Origin: Clostridiales bacterium
GTDB lineage: Bacteria > Bacillota > Proteinivoracia > UBA4975 > PWLI01
Length of the DNA stretch: 64,000 nt
Reading direction: 5' to 3'
NCBI GenBank assembly: GCA_003559415.1
Contig: PWLI01000011.1
Location: forward strand, 3,618 to 67,617
Part shown: positions 28,573 through 46,288 of the stretch, in pieces
How the letters are laid out: each line of letters opens with the position of its first letter
Numbering within the stretch: the first letter of the stretch is position 1
Translations under genes and position numbers: made by a program
Notes under the pieces: model-generated
Told to the model about the DNA's origin: nothing
Databases searched by the model: none
What the model saw: only the letters and a program-made list of their open reading frames with translations

Positions 28573-28648
28573 GGGCCATTAGCTCAGTTGGCAGAGCACC
28601 TGACTTTTAATCAGGGTGTCCCAGGTTCGAATCCTGGATGGCTCACCA
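28573..28648 (+). tRNA. tRNA-Lys (anticodon TTT)
   Basis: GGGCCATTAGCTCAGTTGGCAGAGCA..., anticodon loop cTTTTaa, T-arm GGTTCGAATCC, 3' CCA encoded. Confidence 0.85.
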
Positions 28649-28649
28649 T

Positions 28650-28724
28650 GGCCCCTTGGTCAAGTGGTTAAGACACCGGCCTTTCAAGCCGGTAACAGGG
28701 GTTCGAGTCCCCTAGGGGTCACCA
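28650..28724 (+). tRNA. tRNA-Glu (anticodon TTC)
   Basis: GGCCCCTTGGTCAAGTGGTTAAGACACCGGCCTTTCAAGCCGG..., 3' CCA. Confidence 0.85.
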
Positions 28725-28728
28725 TATT

Positions 28729-28805
28729 GGAGCTGTGGTGTAGAGGCCTAACATGCCTGCCTGTCACGCAGGAGATCGCGGGTTCGAATCCCGTCAGCTC
28801 CGCCA
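28729..28805 (+). tRNA. tRNA-Asp (anticodon GTC)
   Basis: Acceptor GGAGCTG/CAGCTCC, anticodon stem-loop CCTGC-cTGTCAc-GCAGG, T-arm GGTTCGAATCC, CCA. Confidence 0.8.
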
Positions 28806-28807
28806 GT

Positions 28808-28883
28808 GCCGCGGTAGCTCAGTTGGTAGAGCAGTGGACTGAAAATCCACGTGTCGGCAGTTCAATTCTGCCCTGCGGCACCA
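28808..28883 (+). tRNA. tRNA-Phe (anticodon GAA)
   Basis: GCCGCGGTAGCTCAGTTGGTAGAGCA, anticodon loop cTGAAaa, CCA. Confidence 0.85.
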
Positions 28884-28891
28884 TTTTTTTT

Positions 28892-28967
28892 GCCGGCGTA
28901 GCTCAATTGGCAGAGCAGCTGAATCGTAATCAGCAGGTTGCGGGTTCGAGTCCCATCGCCGGCTCCA
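28892..28967 (+). tRNA. tRNA-Thr (anticodon CGT)
   Basis: GCCGGCGTAGCTCAATTGGCAGAGCA, anticodon stem GCTGA/TCAGC with loop aTCGTaa, CCA. Confidence 0.8.
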
Positions 28968-35289: not shown

Positions 35290-36540
35290 ATGGAAAAATA
35301 CATTGTAAACGGCAATCATAAGCTGACAGGAGAAGCCAACATTCATGGAGCAAAAAACGCGGCAGTGGCCATTATACCCGCCACGTTGCTGGCCCAGGGG
35401 CCCTGCGTGCTGGAAAATGTTCCCCCTGTCACCGATGTGGGGGTTTTGTGCGATATCCTCAACATACTGGGGGCCAAGGTGTCCTGGAGGGACAAGTTCA
35501 CCTTGGAGCTGGACACAGCCAACCTGAACAAGGCGGTGGTGCCGGCAGATTTAACAAACAAGCTGCGGGCATCTTATTATCTTATGGGAGCAATGCTGGG
35601 AAGGTTTGGGCAGGCAACGGTGGGGTTGCCCGGCGGATGTAAAATAGGCCCCCGCCCCATTGATCAACACCTCAAGGGGTTTCATGCCCTGGGTTGTGAA
35701 ACCGAGATAAAGAGCGGGGACGTGGTGATGACAAGCCCCGGGCTGACGGGAGGCCATGTGTACTTTGATGTTGTGTCTGTGGGGGCAACAGTAAATGTTA
35801 TGTTGGCTGCTGCAGGGGCCGAAGGCACAACCGTTATAGAAAATGCCGCCCGGGAGCCGGAAATAATTGATCTGGCCAACTTCCTGAACCAGATTGGTGT
35901 GGGCGTCAAGGGCGCCGGTACTGGCACCATAAGGATTTCCGGGGCGAAGGAGCGGGACAACGCGGTCCATTCAATAATCCCCGACCGCATCGAAGCGGGA
36001 ACATTTATGATCGCCGCCGCTGCCACAGGCGGTGATATACGGGTAAAGGGTGTCATCCCCCGTCACTTGGAGCCTGTTACTGCAAAGCTGAGGGAAACGG
36101 GCAGCCAGGTAACAGAAGGAGACGACTGGATTCAGGTGCAGGGAGCGGAACGCGGTTGCGCCGTAGACCTGAAAACCCTTCCTTACCCCGGGTTCCCCAC
36201 CGATTTGCAACAGCCAATGTCTTCCTACCTGGCCCGCTGCACCGGCACCAGCGTCGTGACAGAAAATATATTTGAAAACCGGTTTCGCTATGTCGAAGAG
36301 CTAAAAAGAATGGGCGCCAACATCAAGGTGGAAGGCCGGGTGGCAATCATCGAAGGAGTGGATGAGTTGGAGGGTTCGGTTATTACCGCCCATGACTTGC
36401 GGGCCAGCTCTGCCCTTGTCATTGCAGCTTTGTCAGCATCGGGCCAATCGGAAATACGGGGGATTGAGTTTCTCAACCGCGGGTACTATGATTTTGCAGG
36501 CAAGCTGGAAAGATTGGGTGCCCGGATTAAAAAAGACTGA
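35290..36540 (+). CDS. murA: UDP-N-acetylglucosamine 1-carboxyvinyltransferase
   Basis: 416 aa. ...KNAAVAIIPATLLAQGPCVLENVP..., active-site Cys in LPGGCKIGPRPIDQH. Confidence 0.95.
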   Translation: MEKYIVNGNHKLTGEANIHGAKNAAVAIIPATLLAQGPCVLENVPPVTDVGVLCDILNILGAKVSWRDKFTLELDTANLNKAVVPADLTNKLRASYYLMGAMLGRFGQATVGLPGGCKIGPRPIDQHLKGFHALGCETEIKSGDVVMTSPGLTGGHVYFDVVSVGATVNVMLAAAGAEGTTVIENAAREPEIIDLANFLNQIGVGVKGAGTGTIRISGAKERDNAVHSIIPDRIEAGTFMIAAAATGGDIRVKGVIPRHLEPVTAKLRETGSQVTEGDDWIQVQGAERGCAVDLKTLPYPGFPTDLQQPMSSYLARCTGTSVVTENIFENRFRYVEELKRMGANIKVEGRVAIIEGVDELEGSVITAHDLRASSALVIAALSASGQSEIRGIEFLNRGYYDFAGKLERLGARIKKD

Positions 36541-38525: not shown

Positions 38526-38693
38526 ATGTACGTAGTCTGTGAAAGGCATCTGGAAAAAGCCATTGATGAATTTGTGGAAACATATGAGATGCCCCCCGAC
38601 ATCTACCTTTTGGACCAGGTGTCTTTTACCAGTTGGGCTGCCCCTGCCGAATGTGATTTTTGCACAACCCATCCGGTCTACCTGGTGGTCTAG
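38526..38693 (+). CDS. CxxH/CxxC small protein (BA_5709-like family)
   Basis: MYVVCERHLEKAIDEFVETYEMPPDIYLLDQVSFTSWAAPAECDFCTTHPVYLVV, 55 aa, not in the ORF track. CERH and CDFC motifs, RBS AGGGGAGGGG. It ends 1 nt before rlmH. Confidence 0.55.
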   Translation: MYVVCERHLEKAIDEFVETYEMPPDIYLLDQVSFTSWAAPAECDFCTTHPVYLVV

Positions 38694-39170
38694 ATGAAGA
38701 TCAACCTGTTGACGGTTGGCAAGCTCAAAGAGCCGTGGCTGAAACAGGGGGTGGAGCACTACAGCAGGCGCCTCAAACGTTGGGCCCGGGTTTCTGTCAC
38801 AGAGGTTGCGGAGCAGCCGCTGGGGGACAAGGATGTCGGGGCCCGGAGCAAGACGGTGGCCCGGGAAAGCTCCCTGGTTTTAGAGCGAATTGTGCCGGGA
38901 ACCTGCCTGATCGTTTTGGACATCTGTGGCCGGAAGATGAACTCAGAGCAGCTGGCAGGGTTTATCCAGGAGAAAAAAGTCAGCGGCTTCAGCGACTTTA
39001 CGTTTGTTATCGGCGGTTCAATGGGGCTTAACGATGAAGTCAGGGCAAAGGCAGACTTATTGCTGAGCTTTTCAGGTTTGACCTTCCCCCATCAACTTAT
39101 GCGAGTAATGCTGTTGGAACAAATATATCGTGCGCATAAAATACTGGCAGGAGAGACATATCACAAGTAA
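38694..39170 (+). CDS. rlmH: 23S rRNA (pseudouridine1915-N3)-methyltransferase RlmH
   Basis: MKINLLTVGKLKEPWLKQGVEHYSRRL... SPOUT fold, 158 aa. Confidence 0.9.
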   Translation: MKINLLTVGKLKEPWLKQGVEHYSRRLKRWARVSVTEVAEQPLGDKDVGARSKTVARESSLVLERIVPGTCLIVLDICGRKMNSEQLAGFIQEKKVSGFSDFTFVIGGSMGLNDEVRAKADLLLSFSGLTFPHQLMRVMLLEQIYRAHKILAGETYHK

Positions 39171-39192
39171 TCCCGCCGAGGGAGGAAATGCG

Positions 39193-39936
39193 GTGAAGGA
39201 CTACTACAAAGTGCTTGGAGTTGCTCCAGGCGCGCCCACAGAGGTGGTGAAGGCCGCCTACCGCGCTTTGATGAAAATTCATCACCCTGATGTGGGTGGC
39301 GACCCGCAGCGGGCCAAGGAAATAGAAGAAGCATTCCGTCACCTCAGTGCCCAGCCCCAGCCAAGACGGGAGACTGACAGGCAAGACACTGTCGAGCCTC
39401 CCGCCCCTGTCAGAAGGCGTTCCGACGGCATAGTGGTAGCGGGCAAGTACATCGAAATTGCGGTGTTTGAGCTGTTTGGCAACAGGGTGCTCAGCTGCCC
39501 GCGGGAGTGCACCTTTTACCGTCGAAAGTGTCGGTTTAAGCAAGTTCTGTCGGTGGAAAGTGATGACTTGTTGACCTTCAAGGCAACTACCCTGGACATT
39601 CAAGTGCGCAACCTGACCGACAACCCCCAGACTGTGGACTTTCGCCATGGCCGGGGGGTGCTGGTGGATCAGAATGGCGAGTTCTACCAGTGCCATCAAG
39701 TCTGTGCCTACCAACACCCGGCCAAATACAAAGAAGCAGTTGTAGAGCTTTTTGCAGGAACCCAGGCAAATATAATGCTTTGGTTTCAGCAACAGCCACC
39801 AGGCAGGTATGCAAGCCGCCTGGTCTACAAGCACAGGGCACTTGTGTCAGGAATGAGGGGAGATTACTGGGACCAGGAAATACTGGACGTCAACCTGACG
39901 GGCAAGGGTAAACTTTACCTCAGGGGGAAAAAGTAG
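39193..39936 (+). CDS. J-domain (DnaJ-like) protein with uncharacterised Cys-rich C-terminal domain (GTG start)
   Basis: DYYKVLGVAPGAPTEVVKAAYRALMKIHHPDVGGD is a canonical J domain with HPD. A Pro-rich linker follows, then a 170-aa region with CPRECTFYRRKC and YQCHQVC motifs and no recognisable family. Confidence 0.7.
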   Translation: MKDYYKVLGVAPGAPTEVVKAAYRALMKIHHPDVGGDPQRAKEIEEAFRHLSAQPQPRRETDRQDTVEPPAPVRRRSDGIVVAGKYIEIAVFELFGNRVLSCPRECTFYRRKCRFKQVLSVESDDLLTFKATTLDIQVRNLTDNPQTVDFRHGRGVLVDQNGEFYQCHQVCAYQHPAKYKEAVVELFAGTQANIMLWFQQQPPGRYASRLVYKHRALVSGMRGDYWDQEILDVNLTGKGKLYLRGKK

Positions 39937-39956
39937 CAGCAGACTGCTGCTTTTTC
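39935..39956 (+). terminator. Rho-independent terminator after the J-domain gene
   Basis: GCAGCA-gac-TGCTGC then TTTTTCAG. Confidence 0.5.
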
Positions 39957-39993
39957 AGTTTGAGCCAGCAAGCCGGATACGGAGAGATGAACT

Positions 39994-42459
39994 ATGGACA
40001 ACTTGCAACTTGGCGACCAAGTAAAAACAAGCATCCGACAGTTGATTGCCGGGGCCGACGGCAACGAGCTGTTTTTTGTCGCCCAAGTGGAAGAAAGGCA
40101 AATAACATCAGCAGAAGTTGTTGCCCGGGGAAACAGCGTCAGCGTCCCGGCTGTGACCGAAAAACTCCGCCCTGGCATGTTGGTGTTGCACAATCATCCC
40201 AGCGGTGACCTGACGCCATCAGGCGCGGACATTACCCTGGCCAGCAGACTTGCCGCCGATGGGATTGGTTTTGCCATTACAGATAATGCAGCCAGTCAGC
40301 TGTATGTGGTGGTAGAACCTGATGGCGGCCGGGCAGCCAAGGCCGTTTCGCTGGTTGAGCTTGAAGAGGTGTTGTCTGCCGGCGGAAGCATCAGCCACCG
40401 CATGACGGGCTATGAGACCCGGCCCCAGCAGCTGGCAATGGCTGAACGGGTCAGCCATGTGTTGCACAACGGAGGACAGGGTGTTTTTGAGGCGGCCACC
40501 GGCACAGGGAAAAGCCTGGCCTACCTGGTGCCGGCGATTATCTGGGCGCTGGAAAATGACAAAAGAGTGGCGGTTTCCACCAACACCATTAATTTGCAGG
40601 AACAGTTGCTGCACAAAGATATTCCCTTGCTGGCAAGCGCCCTTTCCCGGCCCTTTAAAGCTGTGCTGGTAAAGGGAAGGGGCAACTATCTGTGTCGCCG
40701 CAAGTTGCGGGAAGTATGCCGCTCTGGTGAGGATTTGTTGGACGACGGCGACCTGGAACCGCTGCAAATGTTAATGAGCTGGGAAAAGGCAACCAGCGAC
40801 GGCAGCCTGTCAGACCTGGATTTTGCCCCCCGCTCCGAGCTGTGGGAATTGCTTTGCTCTGAAGGGGACACTTGCCTGCGCAGTGAATGCCCGATTTTCA
40901 GGGACTGCTTTTTCCACCGTGCGCGCCGGGAGGCTCTCAATGCCCAGTTGCTGGTGACCAATCATCATCTGCTCTTTGCAGACATATCCATGAGGGTTGC
41001 CGGCGGAGAGGCGGGAGTGCTGCCCCGGTACCATGCCGCGATAATTGATGAAGCCCATAACATTGAGCGGGTGGCAACAACCTGGTTTGGCGCCAGGGTT
41101 ACCCGTTTGGGCCTGCTCCGCCTGTTGGGCCGCTTGTATGGGCAGCGGGGAGCGAAGGCCAAGGGCCTGCTGTTGTTGATTGAACGAAAAATTGCTGCCA
41201 GTCAGCAGCTTTCTGAGCAAAAATCCCAGGACATAGTTTCCCGAATTCATCATGAGCTGGTTCCCCTTATCATAAATGCGGCAGCCGGTGTAAATGATTA
41301 CTTCACCCGTATGCAGGTCTATGCCGCCGATGGCCAGGATAAGAAAATCCGTTTGGACGGCAAGGATGGAGCATGGAAAGGACGGCTGGAAGAGGGCCGG
41401 GAAATGATACATCGCCTGGACTCGCTGGCCCATGGGCTGGAGGGGTTTGTCCGGCGCCTGGAACAGGCTTCTCCCGGGGGATTTGAAAACCTCTTGACCT
41501 CTGTTGTTGAGCTGATTTCGGTGTCCGGGCGCCTGCAGGGGCTGACGGACAGCCTCAGAGAGATATTCTTTGGCAATGACCAGCACGCCGTCCGCTGGCT
41601 GGAAGCATATAGCACCCGCCAGGGGCCGGCAGTAAGCTTCCATCAGGCGCCGCTTTCAGTTGACACGTTGCTGGCAGACAACATCTGGCGACGGATACCG
41701 GCAACGGTGCTTACCTCTGCCACGCTGTCGGTGGCCGGCGATTTTGGCTATCTGCGGCGGCAATTGGGCCTGTCGGAAAACATGCCGGTGGAGGAGGGAA
41801 TTTTCCCCTCCCCCTTCGACTACTCATCCCAGGTTATGGTGGGAGTGGCCACAGACATCCCCGAGCCGGAGCAGGGAGCTTATGCGAAAAAACTCGGCCC
41901 CGCCCTCCTGGCCTCTGTCCAGGCCACCAGGGGCAGGGCGCTTATACTGTTTACTTCCTATGCCATGCTGAAAAATGCCCACGGTTATTTGCGCAACAGC
42001 CTGGATGGGAAGGGCATCAGCCTGCTTTGCCAGGGCGAAGCGCCCAGAACCCAGTTGCTGGACAGGTTTCGCAAAGACACCGGCTCTGTGTTGCTGGCAA
42101 CCTCTTCCTTTTGGGAAGGCGTTGATGTGGTGGGGGAAAGTCTCAGCAGCTTGATTATAACCAGGCTGCCCTTTTCTGTGCCCGACGACCCGGTGATGGA
42201 GGCCAAGCTGGAGCGGCTGAGAGACCAGGGCCACAACCCCTTTTACGACTACCAGTTGCCCCAGGCAGTGCTCAGGTTCAAGCAGGGGTTTGGGCGGCTG
42301 ATCCGCAGCCGCAGTGACAGGGGGGTTGTACTGGTGCTGGACAGGCGGATCAGCACCCGGCGTTACGGGAAAATGTTTTTTGGCTCCCTGCCGGAATGCA
42401 CGGTTTTGGAAGATGAACTTTTGTCGATTTTGGACCTGCAGGGCAAGTTCATCGGCTGA
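39994..42459 (+). CDS. RadC-like JAB/MPN domain fused to a DinG/Rad3-family Fe-S ATP-dependent DNA helicase
   Basis: Residues 1-130 carry the JAMM motif LVLHNHPSGDLTPSGADITLASRL (HxHx7Sx2D) with RadC-like flanks. Then Walker A ATGTGKSLAYL, a four-Cys Fe-S insert (C...CLRSECPIFRDC), DEAH (IIDEAHNI), and C-terminal helicase motifs (LLATSSFWEGVDV, GRLIRSRSDRGVVLVLD). Confidence 0.8.
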   Translation: MDNLQLGDQVKTSIRQLIAGADGNELFFVAQVEERQITSAEVVARGNSVSVPAVTEKLRPGMLVLHNHPSGDLTPSGADITLASRLAADGIGFAITDNAASQLYVVVEPDGGRAAKAVSLVELEEVLSAGGSISHRMTGYETRPQQLAMAERVSHVLHNGGQGVFEAATGTGKSLAYLVPAIIWALENDKRVAVSTNTINLQEQLLHKDIPLLASALSRPFKAVLVKGRGNYLCRRKLREVCRSGEDLLDDGDLEPLQMLMSWEKATSDGSLSDLDFAPRSELWELLCSEGDTCLRSECPIFRDCFFHRARREALNAQLLVTNHHLLFADISMRVAGGEAGVLPRYHAAIIDEAHNIERVATTWFGARVTRLGLLRLLGRLYGQRGAKAKGLLLLIERKIAASQQLSEQKSQDIVSRIHHELVPLIINAAAGVNDYFTRMQVYAADGQDKKIRLDGKDGAWKGRLEEGREMIHRLDSLAHGLEGFVRRLEQASPGGFENLLTSVVELISVSGRLQGLTDSLREIFFGNDQHAVRWLEAYSTRQGPAVSFHQAPLSVDTLLADNIWRRIPATVLTSATLSVAGDFGYLRRQLGLSENMPVEEGIFPSPFDYSSQVMVGVATDIPEPEQGAYAKKLGPALLASVQATRGRALILFTSYAMLKNAHGYLRNSLDGKGISLLCQGEAPRTQLLDRFRKDTGSVLLATSSFWEGVDVVGESLSSLIITRLPFSVPDDPVMEAKLERLRDQGHNPFYDYQLPQAVLRFKQGFGRLIRSRSDRGVVLVLDRRISTRRYGKMFFGSLPECTVLEDELLSILDLQGKFIG

Positions 42460-42611
42460 CCGGTTCTTTGTTTAGCCTCTGTGTGCTATACTCGATATGG
42501 CTCCGTTTTTGCCGGACAGTCGGCAAGCAATCACAGCACAGGGCTGTTTTTATCGCCCATGATGCCCGATTATGAGCGGCAAGGCAAAATATTTTGCAAG
42601 GGGTTGGGCCG

Positions 42612-43973
42612 ATGAACAGCGACATAACCCACAATCTTTTGGAAGTGATTATCAGCCAAAGTGATCTGGCCATCCATGTGGTGGACAGGGATGGGGTTAC
42701 AACAATCTACAACAATGCCGCGGAAGCCATGGATGGCCTGTCCCGGCAAGATGTTTTGCACCGCCATATTCTCCAGGTGTTTCCGTCGCTGAACAGGGAC
42801 ACCAGCACCTTGCTTCGGGTGCTGGCCAGCGGCCAGCCAATCTACAACCAGCAGCAAACATACACAAACCTGCATGGCAAGAGCATTGCCACCGTCAACA
42901 CCACCCTGCCAATCACGGGACAGGACGGCGAAAGGGTGGGGGCGGTGGAAATGGCCAGGGACGTTTCCACCATCAAGGCGCTGTCCCAACAGGTTATCAA
43001 CTTGAGCCAGCGCCTGCAAAAACATTCTTCTGAGGCAAACGACCCCAGCTTTTACAGTTTTGATCAAATAGTTGGCAGGGATGCCCAGTTGCTGGCGGTG
43101 GTTGACAAAGCCCGCAAGGCTGCCAGAACATCCTCCCCTGTGCTCATAAGCGGCGAAACGGGTACGGGAAAGGAAATGATTGCCCAGTCAATCCACGGGT
43201 TCAGCCCCCGGGCTTCTCACCCCTTTGTTGCCCAAAACTGTGCAGCATTGCCGGAATCATTGCTGGAAGGGTTGCTTTTTGGCAGCGTCCGGGGGTCTTT
43301 TACCGGGGCCATGGACCGGCCGGGCCTGCTGGAGCTGGCCCACCAGGGGACGCTGCTTCTCGATGAAATTGGTTCTTTGCCCCCGGCGTTGCAGGCCAAA
43401 CTGTTAAGGGTGTTGGAACACGAGGAGGTAAGGCGCCTGGGCGACACCCGGGTAAGGAAGATAAGCTTCCGTTTGGTGGCGGCTACGGCGGCCGAACCAA
43501 GGGAGTGTTTGCGTCCCGATTTGTACTACCGGCTCAATGTAGTCAGCTTACACATGCCCCCGTTGCGGCAGCGGATAAGAGACATACCAATGCTTTGTGC
43601 TCACTTTCTCTCTCGCCAAAACCGGGAAATGGGCAACTCTATAACCGGAATCAGCCATGGGGCCATGGACATACTGCAAAGCTATCATTGGCCCGGCAAT
43701 GTCAGGGAGCTGGCAAACCTTTTGGAGAGCATTGGCAACTATCGGGAAAGCGGCAACATTGTTGCCACCGACCTTCCTGAGCACCTGCGGGCGGGAAGGG
43801 AAGAGTTTTCTTTGCGCAATGAACTGCAGCAACTGGAGAGAAAACACATCCTGGCAGCGATGGAGGCTGCCGGGAATAACATCTCCCGGGCGGCCCAATT
43901 GCTGAAACTGCCCCGCCAGACGCTGCAGCGGAAGTTGAAGGCCCTTGGTTGGCACACTAATTGCACAGAATAA
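42612..43973 (+). CDS. Sigma-54-dependent transcriptional activator (PAS - AAA+ - Fis-type HTH)
   Basis: PAS (HVVDRDGVTTIYNNAAEAMDGL), AAA+ with Walker A GETGTGKE and a GSFTGA variant of the GAFTGA loop, Walker B LLLDEIG, and a C-terminal HTH AAQLLKLPRQTLQRKLK. The ATG at 42612 has a better RBS than the TTG at 42594. Confidence 0.85.
   Translation: MNSDITHNLLEVIISQSDLAIHVVDRDGVTTIYNNAAEAMDGLSRQDVLHRHILQVFPSLNRDTSTLLRVLASGQPIYNQQQTYTNLHGKSIATVNTTLPITGQDGERVGAVEMARDVSTIKALSQQVINLSQRLQKHSSEANDPSFYSFDQIVGRDAQLLAVVDKARKAARTSSPVLISGETGTGKEMIAQSIHGFSPRASHPFVAQNCAALPESLLEGLLFGSVRGSFTGAMDRPGLLELAHQGTLLLDEIGSLPPALQAKLLRVLEHEEVRRLGDTRVRKISFRLVAATAAEPRECLRPDLYYRLNVVSLHMPPLRQRIRDIPMLCAHFLSRQNREMGNSITGISHGAMDILQSYHWPGNVRELANLLESIGNYRESGNIVATDLPEHLRAGREEFSLRNELQQLERKHILAAMEAAGNNISRAAQLLKLPRQTLQRKLKALGWHTNCTE
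43950..43965 (+). promoter_or_regulatory. Sigma-54 (-24/-12) promoter for the lysine-fermentation operon, embedded in the last codons of the activator gene
   Basis: TGGCAC-actaa-TTGCA is a perfect TGGCAC-N5-TTGCA. It ends 6 nt before the activator stop codon and lies about 35 nt upstream of the kdd start. Confidence 0.65.
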
Positions 43974-44000
43974 GGACAAAGGGAGTAGGGAGTGAGCAAC

Positions 44001-45047
44001 ATGAAAACCAAAGGTTGTGCATACGGCACACATCGCAGCATCGAGCCCCGGGGGTCGCTTCCCCAACCAGCATGGAAAATTGACAACACGCTGGACATTT
44101 GGAGCAATGAACTGTTGATAGATGTTGACACCCTCAACATTGATGCAGCCAGTTTCCGTCAGATTTCTGCTTCAGCCCAGGGCGATGAAGGTGAAATCGC
44201 CAATATAATAATGAAAACCGTTTCTGAACGGGGCAAGCAACACAACCCGGTGACGGGTTCCGGGGGCATGCTTGTAGGCCGGGTGGCAAAAGTCGGGAAA
44301 GACTGGCCCAACAATGTTGAACCAGACAGCCGCATGGCCACCCTTGTTTCCCTGTCTTTGACCCCCCTGGTCATTGAAGAAGTGCTTGCAGTGCGCCCCG
44401 ATACCTGTCAGGTAGACGTGCGGGGCAAGGCTGTTTTGTTTGAAAGCGGCATATATGCCCTGTTGCCCCAGGACATGCCGGAAAAAATGGCGCTGGCTGT
44501 GTTGGATGTTGCCGGTGCCCCCGCCCAAACTGCCCGCCTGGCCCGTTCCGGTCAGACGGTGGTTGTTATTGGAGCCGGCGGAAAGTCTGGGTTGCTCTGT
44601 CTCTTCCAGGCCCGGCAAAAGGCAGGGGATCAGGGCCGGGTGCTGGCCCTGGAGTTTTCCCAGGCAGGCGTGGAGCGAATTGAGGAAACGGGTTATGCCG
44701 ATGAGATCATTGTCGCTGATGCCACCAACCCCACAGATGTTTTGGACAAGGTAAGTGCCGTCACAGATGGAGCACTGGCAGACCTGACCATAAACTGTGT
44801 GGACATCCCGGGAACGGAGATGTCGTCAATTCTTTCCACCAAGAATGGAGGGACCGTCTATTTTTTCAGCATGGCCACCAGCTTTACTGCCGCGGCGCTG
44901 GGTGCAGAAGGAGTAGGCAAGGACGTGACCATGATAATTGGCAATGGCTACACTCGGGGACATGCTGATATGGCCCTGGAATGCATGCGCCAGCAACCCC
45001 GGTTGAAAGAGATTTTTTCCCGGGCTTACGTTGAAAAGGAGGACTAG
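44001..45047 (+). CDS. kdd: L-erythro-3,5-diaminohexanoate dehydrogenase
   Basis: MKTKGCAYGTHRSIEPRGSLPQPAWKIDN... is the conserved Kdd N-terminus, followed by a Rossmann VVVIGAGGKSG. About 350 aa. RBS TAGGGAG. The ORF track uses a GTG at 43992. Confidence 0.8.
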   Translation: MKTKGCAYGTHRSIEPRGSLPQPAWKIDNTLDIWSNELLIDVDTLNIDAASFRQISASAQGDEGEIANIIMKTVSERGKQHNPVTGSGGMLVGRVAKVGKDWPNNVEPDSRMATLVSLSLTPLVIEEVLAVRPDTCQVDVRGKAVLFESGIYALLPQDMPEKMALAVLDVAGAPAQTARLARSGQTVVVIGAGGKSGLLCLFQARQKAGDQGRVLALEFSQAGVERIEETGYADEIIVADATNPTDVLDKVSAVTDGALADLTINCVDIPGTEMSSILSTKNGGTVYFFSMATSFTAAALGAEGVGKDVTMIIGNGYTRGHADMALECMRQQPRLKEIFSRAYVEKED

Positions 45048-45049
45048 CC

Positions 45050-46288
45050 TTGGCTGATTACAAAGACATACCCCTGTTTGAATCGGTGACAAAGGAACAG
45101 TGGCAAGACTGGCATTGGCAACTGCAAAACCGCATAAGCGATGTTGCCACGCTCAAAAAGGTAATCAACCTTACCAGCCAGGAAGAAGAGGGGATTGAGC
45201 GCTGTTTGCAGTCGTTGAGAATGGCCGTTACCCCTTACTATGCCAGCCTGATGGATAGGGACGACCCCAACTGCCCCATAAGGCGGCAGGCTGTTCCTGT
45301 CAGCAATGAGTTGAACATGTCTGCTACCGATATGGACGATCCCTTGGCAGAGGATACCGACTCGCCGGTGCCCGGCCTGACCCACCGATACCCCGACAGG
45401 GTGCTGTTGCTGGTAACTGACCAGTGTTCCATGTATTGCCGCCACTGCACACGCAGAAGGATGGCGGGAGCCACCGACAAAGCCCTGCCGGGAGAGCAGG
45501 TGGATGGAGCGATAGAATATATCCGCCGCACCCCGGCCATAAGGGATGTGCTGATTTCCGGTGGCGACGGGTTGCTTATTTCAGATGCTCACCTGGAAAA
45601 AATAATCCAGAAGCTGCGCAGCATCCCCCATGTTGATGTTATTCGCATTGGCACCCGGGTGCCGGTGGTGATGCCCCAGCGCATTACCCGGGAACTGGTA
45701 ACGATGTTGCAACGCTACCACCCTGTTTGGCTGAACACCCACTTTAACCATCCCCGGGAGGTTACCCCTGAAGCCTGTAAGGCGTTGGAAATGCTGGCCA
45801 ATGCGGGCATACCCCTGGGCAACCAGTCGGTGCTGTTGCGGGGTGTAAATGACTGCGTCGGCGTGATGAAGGCGCTGGTGCACAAGCTGGTGCAAAACCG
45901 GGTGCGCCCATACTACATTTACCAGTGTGACCTCTCCCGGGGGATAGAGCATTTTCGCACACCAGTGGCCAAGGGGATTGAAATTATTGAAGGCCTGCGG
46001 GGCCACACTTCTGGCTATGCAGTGCCCACCTATGTCGTAGATGCCCCCGGCGGAGGGGGCAAAATACCGGTGATGCCCCAATACCTGATCTCTCATTCTC
46101 CCCAGAGGGTAGTGTTGCGTAACTTTGAGGGCGTCATAGCGGCTTACACCCAGCCCTCAGAATACAGCGACCCGGATTGCAGTCAGTGTGAATATTGTCA
46201 GCAATCAATTGGTGTCAGCAGTGTTTTGCAAGGCAGTCGGCCCAGCCTTGAACCGGAGGGTTTGGACCGGCAGAGACGCCGCAAATGA
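45050..46288 (+). CDS. kamA: L-lysine 2,3-aminomutase (radical SAM)
   Basis: CSMYCRHCTRRR is the CxxxCxxC cluster. PLP-binding and the C-terminal Zn-Cys motif CSQCEYC match the KamA architecture. Confidence 0.9.
   Translation: MADYKDIPLFESVTKEQWQDWHWQLQNRISDVATLKKVINLTSQEEEGIERCLQSLRMAVTPYYASLMDRDDPNCPIRRQAVPVSNELNMSATDMDDPLAEDTDSPVPGLTHRYPDRVLLLVTDQCSMYCRHCTRRRMAGATDKALPGEQVDGAIEYIRRTPAIRDVLISGGDGLLISDAHLEKIIQKLRSIPHVDVIRIGTRVPVVMPQRITRELVTMLQRYHPVWLNTHFNHPREVTPEACKALEMLANAGIPLGNQSVLLRGVNDCVGVMKALVHKLVQNRVRPYYIYQCDLSRGIEHFRTPVAKGIEIIEGLRGHTSGYAVPTYVVDAPGGGGKIPVMPQYLISHSPQRVVLRNFEGVIAAYTQPSEYSDPDCSQCEYCQQSIGVSSVLQGSRPSLEPEGLDRQRRRK

Follow-up and report, generated by a model that had tools for sequence, protein, structure and literature searches.

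What does a RadC-type JAB domain do when it is carried by a DNA helicase? Few bacterial proteins that still lack an assigned activity are as widespread as RadC, whose "DNA repair" name goes back to a mis-mapped mutation. The question is raised by a gene at positions 39994..42459 (+ strand, stop codon included) of a 64-kb stretch of contig PWLI01000011.1 from a Clostridiales bacterium, the whole of which is referred to here as the window. Its single-frame open reading frame (ORF) encodes an 821-residue protein with a RadC-like JAB/MPN domain at the N terminus and an iron–sulfur (Fe–S) helicase behind it. The present analysis indicates that this protein is almost certainly a canonical representative of the previously published RadC-like DinG subgroup, namely a chromosomal, housekeeping-context superfamily 2 (SF2) helicase of the DinG/YoaA branch, probably of 5′→3′ polarity, that bears a catalytically complete JAB site predicted to bind zinc. 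The family is known, described, named, and structurally modeled in the literature, and the window protein is an ordinary member of it. The fusion nevertheless matters because the substrate of the helicase partner (single-stranded DNA [ssDNA], 5′→3′) is known, which makes the DinG fusion the cleanest natural clue to the target of RadC-type JAB domains. That clue was published in 2011 and restated in 2025, and the window protein adds another example rather than a new idea.

Architecture of the fused protein

The start of the protein is fixed by its own sequence. An in-frame TGA at 39988-39990, just 5′ of the ORF, closes the same frame, so that the ATG at 39994 is the only possible start; a Shine–Dalgarno-like GGAGAG, read from the sequence at 39981..39986, stands 7 nt 5′ of it. 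The RadC-like JAB/MPN domain comprises residues 1-112 (39994..40329; this and all further features of the gene are on the + strand), as delimited by Pfam RadC, AlphaFold2, fold matches, and the family profile. Pfam RadC (PF04002) is matched at 26.6 bits, against a gathering threshold of 22.1, over residues 61-88 only (profile positions 66-93 of 121), and the N-terminal fragment searched alone reaches 29.5 bits against the same threshold. A family profile made from our own alignment gives 154 bits over residues 7-128. AlphaFold2 models residues 1-135 from a 61-sequence alignment with a predicted local distance difference test score (pLDDT) of 88.4 and a predicted template modeling score (pTM) of 0.75, and a Foldseek search of the PDB with the N-domain returned JAB/MPN proteins only (RadC 2qlc, Rpn11 homologs, AMSH/Sst2, CSN5, BRCC36, and the bacterial BubCD). 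The fold neighbors of known activity are all (iso)peptidases, namely Rpn11, CSN5, AMSH, BRCC36, PfJAMM1, Cap3, BilC, and BubCD; scaffold-type MPN proteins, specifically Rpn8, CSN6, Prp8, and eIF3f/h, are found among the matches as well.

On this MPN fold the window protein presents the E...HxHx7Sx2D pattern of the JAMM/MPN+ isopeptidases. Glu25 (codon 40066..40068) is the putative general base, and the JAMM motif HNHPSGDLTPSGAD at residues 66-79 (40189..40230) supplies H66, H68, S76, and D79. All five residues are invariant in both of our alignments (54-61 diverse homologs), and, judged by motif and position, E25/H66/H68/S76/D79 represent a complete JAMM catalytic set, upstream glutamate included. 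The domain is acidic (median isoelectric point [pI] 5.1, net charge -5), in contrast to the basic helicase (pI 8.1).

The helicase body, assigned from NCBIfam models and PDB entry 6fwr, spans residues 129-821 (40378..42459) and has all the hallmarks of a DinG/XPD-type SF2 enzyme: Walker A, DEAH, motifs III/V/VI, a Helicase_C_2 domain, and a four-cysteine insert between Walker A and Walker B. Walker A (motif I, GTGKS) lies at residues 170-174 (40501..40515), with G170, G172, and K173 invariant, and Pfam DEAD matches at residues 154-207. The cysteines of the Fe–S insert (Cys234, Cys294, Cys299, and Cys305; 40693..40908) align with the cluster cysteines of Escherichia coli DinG in 6fwr; C234, C299, and C305 are invariant and C294 is kept in at least 90% of sequences. 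Walker B (motif II, DEAH) occupies residues 352-355 (41047..41058), with D352, E353, and H355 invariant. TSAT follows at residue 574, and the Pfam Helicase_C_2 match (residues 641-801, 41914..42396, E 8e-49) covers motor domain 2 (MD2) with motifs V/VI, including the QGFGR at 764 that opens the QGFGRLIR of residues 764-771.

Among the NCBIfam models, which match residues 125-814, YoaA (NF053712) scores best, at 595.4 bits, below its cutoff of 680. The ExoDinG model PRK08074 gives 525 bits (cutoff 789), placing query residues 129-814 on model positions 247-923, and the DinG model PRK11747 gives 414 bits, also below its equivalog cutoff. By these scores the body is YoaA-like, though no ortholog of YoaA. 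The best structural match is E. coli DinG 6fwr (E 1e-50 by sequence and E 3e-42 by fold), followed in the full-length fold search by the Staphylococcus aureus exonuclease-DinG structures 9ii8/8zef and then by CasDinG and XPD, with DdmD also present.

The two domains are joined by a linker at residues 108-130 (40315..40383), defined by alignment, in which the models place a short helix at 120-127. Its length, counted from the last JAB strand to the helicase, is exactly 23 residues in 54 of 54 aligned homologs. The AlphaFold2 model of the full-length protein is continuous (pLDDT 87.3, pTM 0.84), and the rigid 23-residue spacing would hold the JAB domain in a fixed geometry relative to the helicase.

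Collectively, these results bear out most of the first-pass annotation of this DNA, which had described an intact JAMM motif in a RadC-like context, joined in one frame to a complete DinG/Rad3 helicase. Motifs, Pfam, and folds agree on that reading, and Walker A, the four-cysteine Fe–S insert, DEAH, and motifs V/VI were all found where it had placed them. The profile searches suggested there gave PF04002 above gathering, with partial coverage, and Helicase_C_2 at the E-value given above. Two faults named as fatal to the annotation were looked for. The first, an N terminus lacking the RadC fold or having degenerate ligands, is not what we see, as the fold is JAB/MPN and the ligands are intact; the second, a frameshift or join near residue 140, is absent, the linker being fixed and the composition flat. 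The annotation had also supposed that the JAB module replaces the DnaQ-like exonuclease of Firmicutes DinG, which agrees with the alignment to PRK08074 from model position 247 onward.

Distribution of the fusion

JAB–DinG fusions were reported, with Firmicutes explicitly included, by Iyer, Zhang, Rogozin & Aravind in 2011, who also recorded the loss of the zinc ligands in some fusobacteria (PMC3239186). A 2025 review of bacterial DinG-like proteins gave the subgroup the name "RadC-like DinG" and took a protein from Desulfuromonas soudanensis as its model (PMC11981726).

An exhaustive phmmer search with the 128-residue N-domain against 1.84 billion cluster representatives (50% identity) recovered 606 proteins, each standing for a 50%-identity cluster, at E ≤ 0.001, of which 362 had E ≤ 1e-10. 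Among the 160 matches inspected, 68 are full-length fusions and nearly all others are fragments that run into the helicase or stop at the edge of a contig; outside helicase fusions this N-domain clade hardly occurs. A word-indexed search with the N-domain alone found 14 fragments only, and a family hidden Markov model applied to the window and 84 loci in six-frame translation detected no stand-alone or split N-domain, matching the N terminus of the helicase only. The short database matches to the N-domain are fragments or frameshifted pieces. In two short proteins (P0248 and P0255) the N-domain gives way to unrelated sequence, which is ABC-ATPase-like in one of them and XRE helix–turn–helix-like in the other; both probably come from chimeric or frameshifted contigs.

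The 821-residue protein as a whole has thousands of homologs in the database search, and the homology runs end to end: more than 100 proteins of 820-890 residues cover 96-100% of the query. The best 120 homologs are 816-890 residues long with the same coverage, except for two of 717-718 residues without the N-domain. From residue ~5 to residue ~805 the window protein is matched by loci of Geobacter, Desulfuromonadales, Gemmatimonadota, Spirochaetota, and other groups. A scan of species-representative genomes places the fusion in at least 10 phyla; carriers among the matches listed are Terriglobia, Thermodesulfobacteriota, Geobacter, Desulfuromonadales, Nitrospiraceae, Gemmatimonadota, Sumerlaeota, Hydrogenedentota, KSB1, Halanaerobium, Fusobacteriota, Spirochaetota, and Brachyspira. 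The earlier description of the architecture as uncommon must therefore be abandoned: the search for JAB plus DinG in other genomes shows it to be widespread, not rare, with 606 clusters in at least 10 phyla, publication in 2011, and a name since 2025. The JAMM motif is intact in 113 of the 120 top homologs, in 158 of the 160 inspected representatives, and in 64 of the 84 loci, of which 66 possess the domain.

Candidate activities of the JAB domain

The reading toward which we lean, tentatively, is that the helicase delivers a zinc-dependent JAB hydrolase to a peptide or isopeptide bond of a protein stuck on DNA. In such a mechanism the basic helicase body would load on ssDNA at gaps or stalled forks and would move 5′→3′ with ATP, as DinG, YoaA, and XPD do, until its Fe–S/Arch side met the block on the strand. 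Lacking a DNA-binding module, the acidic JAB domain would travel with the helicase and would hydrolyze the obstacle by means of a zinc-activated water held by E25/H66/H68/D79, with S76 stabilizing the intermediate. The obstacle we favor is a protein bound tightly to the DNA or trapped on it covalently, in which a peptide or isopeptide bond would be cut.

Several lines of evidence argue for a peptidase in particular. To our knowledge, every assayed JAB enzyme with this exact E/HxH/S/D site is an (iso)peptidase. Because the assayed enzymes with the same catalytic set, and the fold neighbors of known activity, are (iso)peptidases, and because the N-domain is acidic on a basic helicase, a peptidase is favored over a nuclease. 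That an enzymatic activity has been selected at all is argued by the full catalytic set, which is invariant in ~97-99% of members across at least 10 phyla. There is also a precedent in favor of a peptidase: the helicase FANCJ, which belongs to the same family, runs into a crosslinked protein and unfolds it for cleavage by the metalloprotease SPRTN (PMC12279946). By analogy, RadC-like DinG might be the single-polypeptide bacterial counterpart of FANCJ plus SPRTN, its JAB domain cutting protein trapped on ssDNA, although we regard this narrower proposal as rather unlikely. If it were true, the orphan RadC family, whose JAB domains are combined with helix–hairpin–helix (HhH), ArdC-N, or primase modules, would be DNA-targeted proteases.

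A number of observations weigh against delivery of a peptidase. RadC-type JAB domains are said by Iyer et al. to lack the groove for the ubiquitin-like tail (PMC5512222), so that the classical mode of substrate binding would be missing. Our literature search for an experimental link between RadC and DNA–protein crosslinks returned nothing relevant. When the flanking ORFs of 80 loci were clustered, no cross-phylum neighbor emerged, only synteny within a phylum (Gemmatimonadota) and spurious high-GC ORFs; because no neighbor is conserved across phyla, genomic context indicates no protein substrate. No Cheo/LexA-like box was found near the gene, the matches in the window being fewer than expected by chance for a consensus that may not be that of this lineage, and a damage-inducible role is unsupported here. 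Moreover, the JAB domain is dispensable in evolution. Sister helicases of Planctomycetota, Poribacteria, and Parachlamydiaceae are without it and have no separate copy within 6 kb; two Fusobacteriaceae loci (L061 and L063) keep the domain with the motif lost; the first histidine has been lost in a few Firmicutes relatives and is replaced by R, Y, or C in P0028-P0031, and the whole HxH...S..D motif has decayed in P0032; and the two homologs of 717-718 residues lack the entire N-domain. Such naturally decayed sites and lost domains could serve as natural controls for function. Homologs at 47-50% identity that show JAMM-site decay or domain loss are P0028-P0032, P0070, and P0098.

Last among these points, the closest helicase relatives carry a 3′-5′ exonuclease at the position of the JAB domain, which favors a nuclease (PMC3239186). 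On that alternative, proposed by Iyer et al. (2011) as a nonhomologous displacement of the 3′-5′ exonuclease and repeated in PMC5512222, the JAB domain would be a metal-dependent nuclease or nucleic-acid processor that trims the translocated or displaced strand, equivalent to the DnaQ domain of ExoDinG. We consider it possible, if on the unlikely side. The JAB domain sits exactly where the exonuclease does, position 247 of PRK08074 corresponding to query residue 129; structurally, the helicase body has S. aureus ExoDinG as one of its nearest matches; helicases with a fused JAB domain and those with a fused exonuclease are closely related (PMC3239186); and RadC JAB domains are otherwise fused to the DNA-binding modules HhH, ArdC-N, and primase (PMC3239186, PMC5512222). 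This last association is, however, double-edged. RadC JAB domains are fused to ArdC-N, an ssDNA-binding module (PMC5512222), and in canonical ArdC the same ArdC-N is paired with a zincin metallopeptidase (PMC3239186). With ArdC-N fused to either a RadC JAB domain or a zincin, the displacement argument supports a peptidase no less than a nuclease. The E/HxH/S/D residues are, in addition, the isopeptidase set, with a single predicted zinc site, and the N-domain is acidic. We know of no JAB/MPN protein that has been shown to cleave nucleic acid, and of no JAB/MPN nuclease on record. Finally, fold searches with the N-domain give peptidases and no nuclease, both here and in the 2025 review (PMC11981726).

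The evolutionary losses described above suggest a third explanation, in which the JAB domain is a regulatory, scaffold, or partner-binding module, or a processor of ubiquitin-like (Ubl) or other small modifiers, on an otherwise ordinary DinG/YoaA-type repair helicase. MPN domains are often scaffolds, as are Rpn8, CSN6, Prp8, and eIF3f/h among the fold matches; several lineages have lost the metal ligands or the entire domain and kept the helicase; and the helicase is closest to YoaA (595 bits), which works via a protein partner. RadC-like DinG has a YoaA-like C-terminal helix, yet HolC is absent from the organisms that encode it (PMC11981726). This explanation must contend with a catalytic set that is invariant in nearly all members and in at least 10 phyla, as well as with the neighborhood, where genes for Ubl, E1, and E2 proteins were found neither in the window nor in relatives within ~6 kb of the gene. 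The reported want of a Ubl-tail groove counts against a modifier-processing role too (PMC5512222). On balance we judge the explanation quite unlikely.

An anti-phage or anti-plasmid defense helicase akin to CasDinG/Csf4 or DdmD, with JAB as its effector, is highly improbable: PADLOC typeIV_DinG models do match the helicase body (435 bits), CasDinG and DdmD structures are among the fold matches, and JAB domains occur in CBASS (Cap3), Bil, and Bub systems, but the PADLOC matches reflect general DinG homology, since the NCBIfam Csf4 equivalog scores 109.9 bits against a cutoff of 400, no Cas genes or defense neighbors lie nearby and no CRISPR-like repeats occur in the 64-kb window, and the gene lies in a region of the core genome that is conserved in relatives at 50-61% identity and shows no compositional anomaly. 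The CasDinG/defense identity was rejected on the Csf4 score and the absence of a cas/CRISPR context. That two genes were merged artificially, by a frameshift, an assembly join, or a mis-called start, can be dismissed with near certainty, as the same architecture recurs in 68 full-length representatives and 64 independent genome loci, the linker is constant in length, the model is continuous, no compositional break was found at the JAB/helicase junction, and NCBI holds an identical 821-residue protein (P0001) from two contigs.

Genomic neighborhood and known systems

The gene lies in a housekeeping, chromosomal context. Upstream of it the window has a core-genome order typical of Bacillota: murA (35290-36540), a YycJ-type metallo-beta-lactamase, an HtrA-type protease, YyzF, RlmH, a J-domain protein, and then the helicase. 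The YyzF-like protein (55 residues; 38526-38693, +; PF14116, E 5e-18), between the HtrA-type protease and rlmH, occupies that place in relatives as well, and the murA–yycJ–htrA–yyzF–rlmH synteny extends to relatives at 50-61% identity.

The J-domain protein is encoded in the ORF at 39130-39936 (+; DnaJ, E 7e-11). Its counterpart at this position in one relative (L081) shares 67% identity with it in an alignment that begins at 39193. Rather than at 39130, where it would overlap rlmH, the gene therefore probably starts at the GTG at 39193, which gives a product of ~247 residues. It consists of an N-terminal DnaJ domain and an uncharacterized C-terminal part of ~165 residues and has no PADLOC match. 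At the end of the gene, a terminator-like hairpin (39935..39951, +; a 7-bp stem with four G-C pairs, then TTTTT) confirms the terminator that had been placed upstream of the helicase gene; we give it as context only. The first-pass annotation had further drawn attention to the J-domain gene as the helicase's neighbor. The ORF is real, but a partnership is not indicated. In the relatives with shared synteny, one or two opposite-strand genes (DUF1622, BON) stand between the J-domain gene and the helicase; in Anaerobranca the upstream genes are different and the J-domain gene is not beside the helicase; and when neighbors were tracked across 80 distant loci, neither the J-domain gene nor any other window neighbor was found beside the helicase in a single one. 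A functional link to the J-domain gene was therefore rejected, the synteny being confined to the lineage, with intervening opposite-strand genes in relatives and a hairpin between the two genes here.

Directly 3′ of the helicase are genes for a PAS/sigma-54 activator (42594-43973, +), a dehydrogenase that is weakly ADH_zinc_N-like (43992-45047, +), and a lysine 2,3-aminomutase (45050-46288, +; LAM_C, E 1e-39). The segment 42594-46288 looks like a sigma-54-controlled lysine fermentation cluster. In three relatives the position directly 3′ of the helicase is occupied, on the opposite strand, by a conserved 40-residue Cys-rich ORF (LEHCxxCxxxCPxIxGC) without a Pfam match (L081 8495-8617, L082 8504-8626, and L083 8456-8578, all -); it is absent from the window, as is the PBP1/pvlArgDC-speE-speB block that adjoins it in those relatives. 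Farther upstream, five tRNA genes (Lys-TTT, Glu-TTC, Asp-GTC, Phe-GAA, and Thr-CGT) are tightly clustered at 28573-28967 (+).

Set against known systems, the protein combines familiar parts. With the stand-alone E. coli YoaA and DinG it shares the core, the four Fe–S cysteines, and motifs I-VI, but it has the additional JAB domain and scores below the equivalog cutoffs (680 and 598/789 bits). The ExoDinG proteins of Bacillus and Staphylococcus (8zef, 9ii8) have the same layout of accessory hydrolase, linker, and DinG body; their N-terminal domain, however, is an RNase H-fold exonuclease, of a fold unrelated to the putative zinc JAB of the window protein, which falls outside the ExoDinG models (PRK08074/PRK07246/TIGR01407) with 525 bits against 789 and no exonuclease domain. 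Compared with RadC/YsxA/YeeS (PF04002; 2qlc), the window protein is without the N-terminal HhH region, and it falls far below the models of RadC proper (26.5 against 180 bits for PRK00024 and 21.3 against 134 for TIGR00608), with ~28-35 residues matching. Because the RadC matches are this short and a phmmer search with the N-domain leads to the helicase fusions instead of canonical RadC, the N-domain represents a separate clade of RadC-like JAB domains.

Relative to the JAMM/MPN+ isopeptidases (Rpn11, CSN5, AMSH, BRCC36, PfJAMM1, Cap3, and BilC), the N-domain is a minimal version of ~110 residues and has no Ubl partner or E1/E2 context; RadC-type domains are, as noted, reported without the Ub-tail groove (PMC5512222). 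The likeness to FANCJ and SPRTN is one of function only, in that a 5′→3′ Fe–S helicase of the XPD/DinG family and a zinc metalloprotease act on protein linked to ssDNA (PMC12279946). FANCJ and SPRTN are two proteins, SPRTN is a zincin rather than a JAB enzyme, and a corresponding action of the bacterial fusion on proteins is suggested by analogy. The closest counterpart remains the RadC-like DinG subgroup itself, which has the same architecture, an N-terminal JAB domain with conserved E, H, H, and D, and the same YoaA-like body composed of motor domain 1, Fe–S, Arch, and MD2, with the residues for ATP, DNA, and metal conserved. The window protein aligns end to end with members from Geobacter, Desulfuromonadales, and other groups at 35-45% identity, and nothing of substance sets it apart from them: it is the Bacillota member that resides in the yyc/htrA/rlmH region and, being compact at 821 residues with all catalytic residues intact, it is a candidate for biochemistry.

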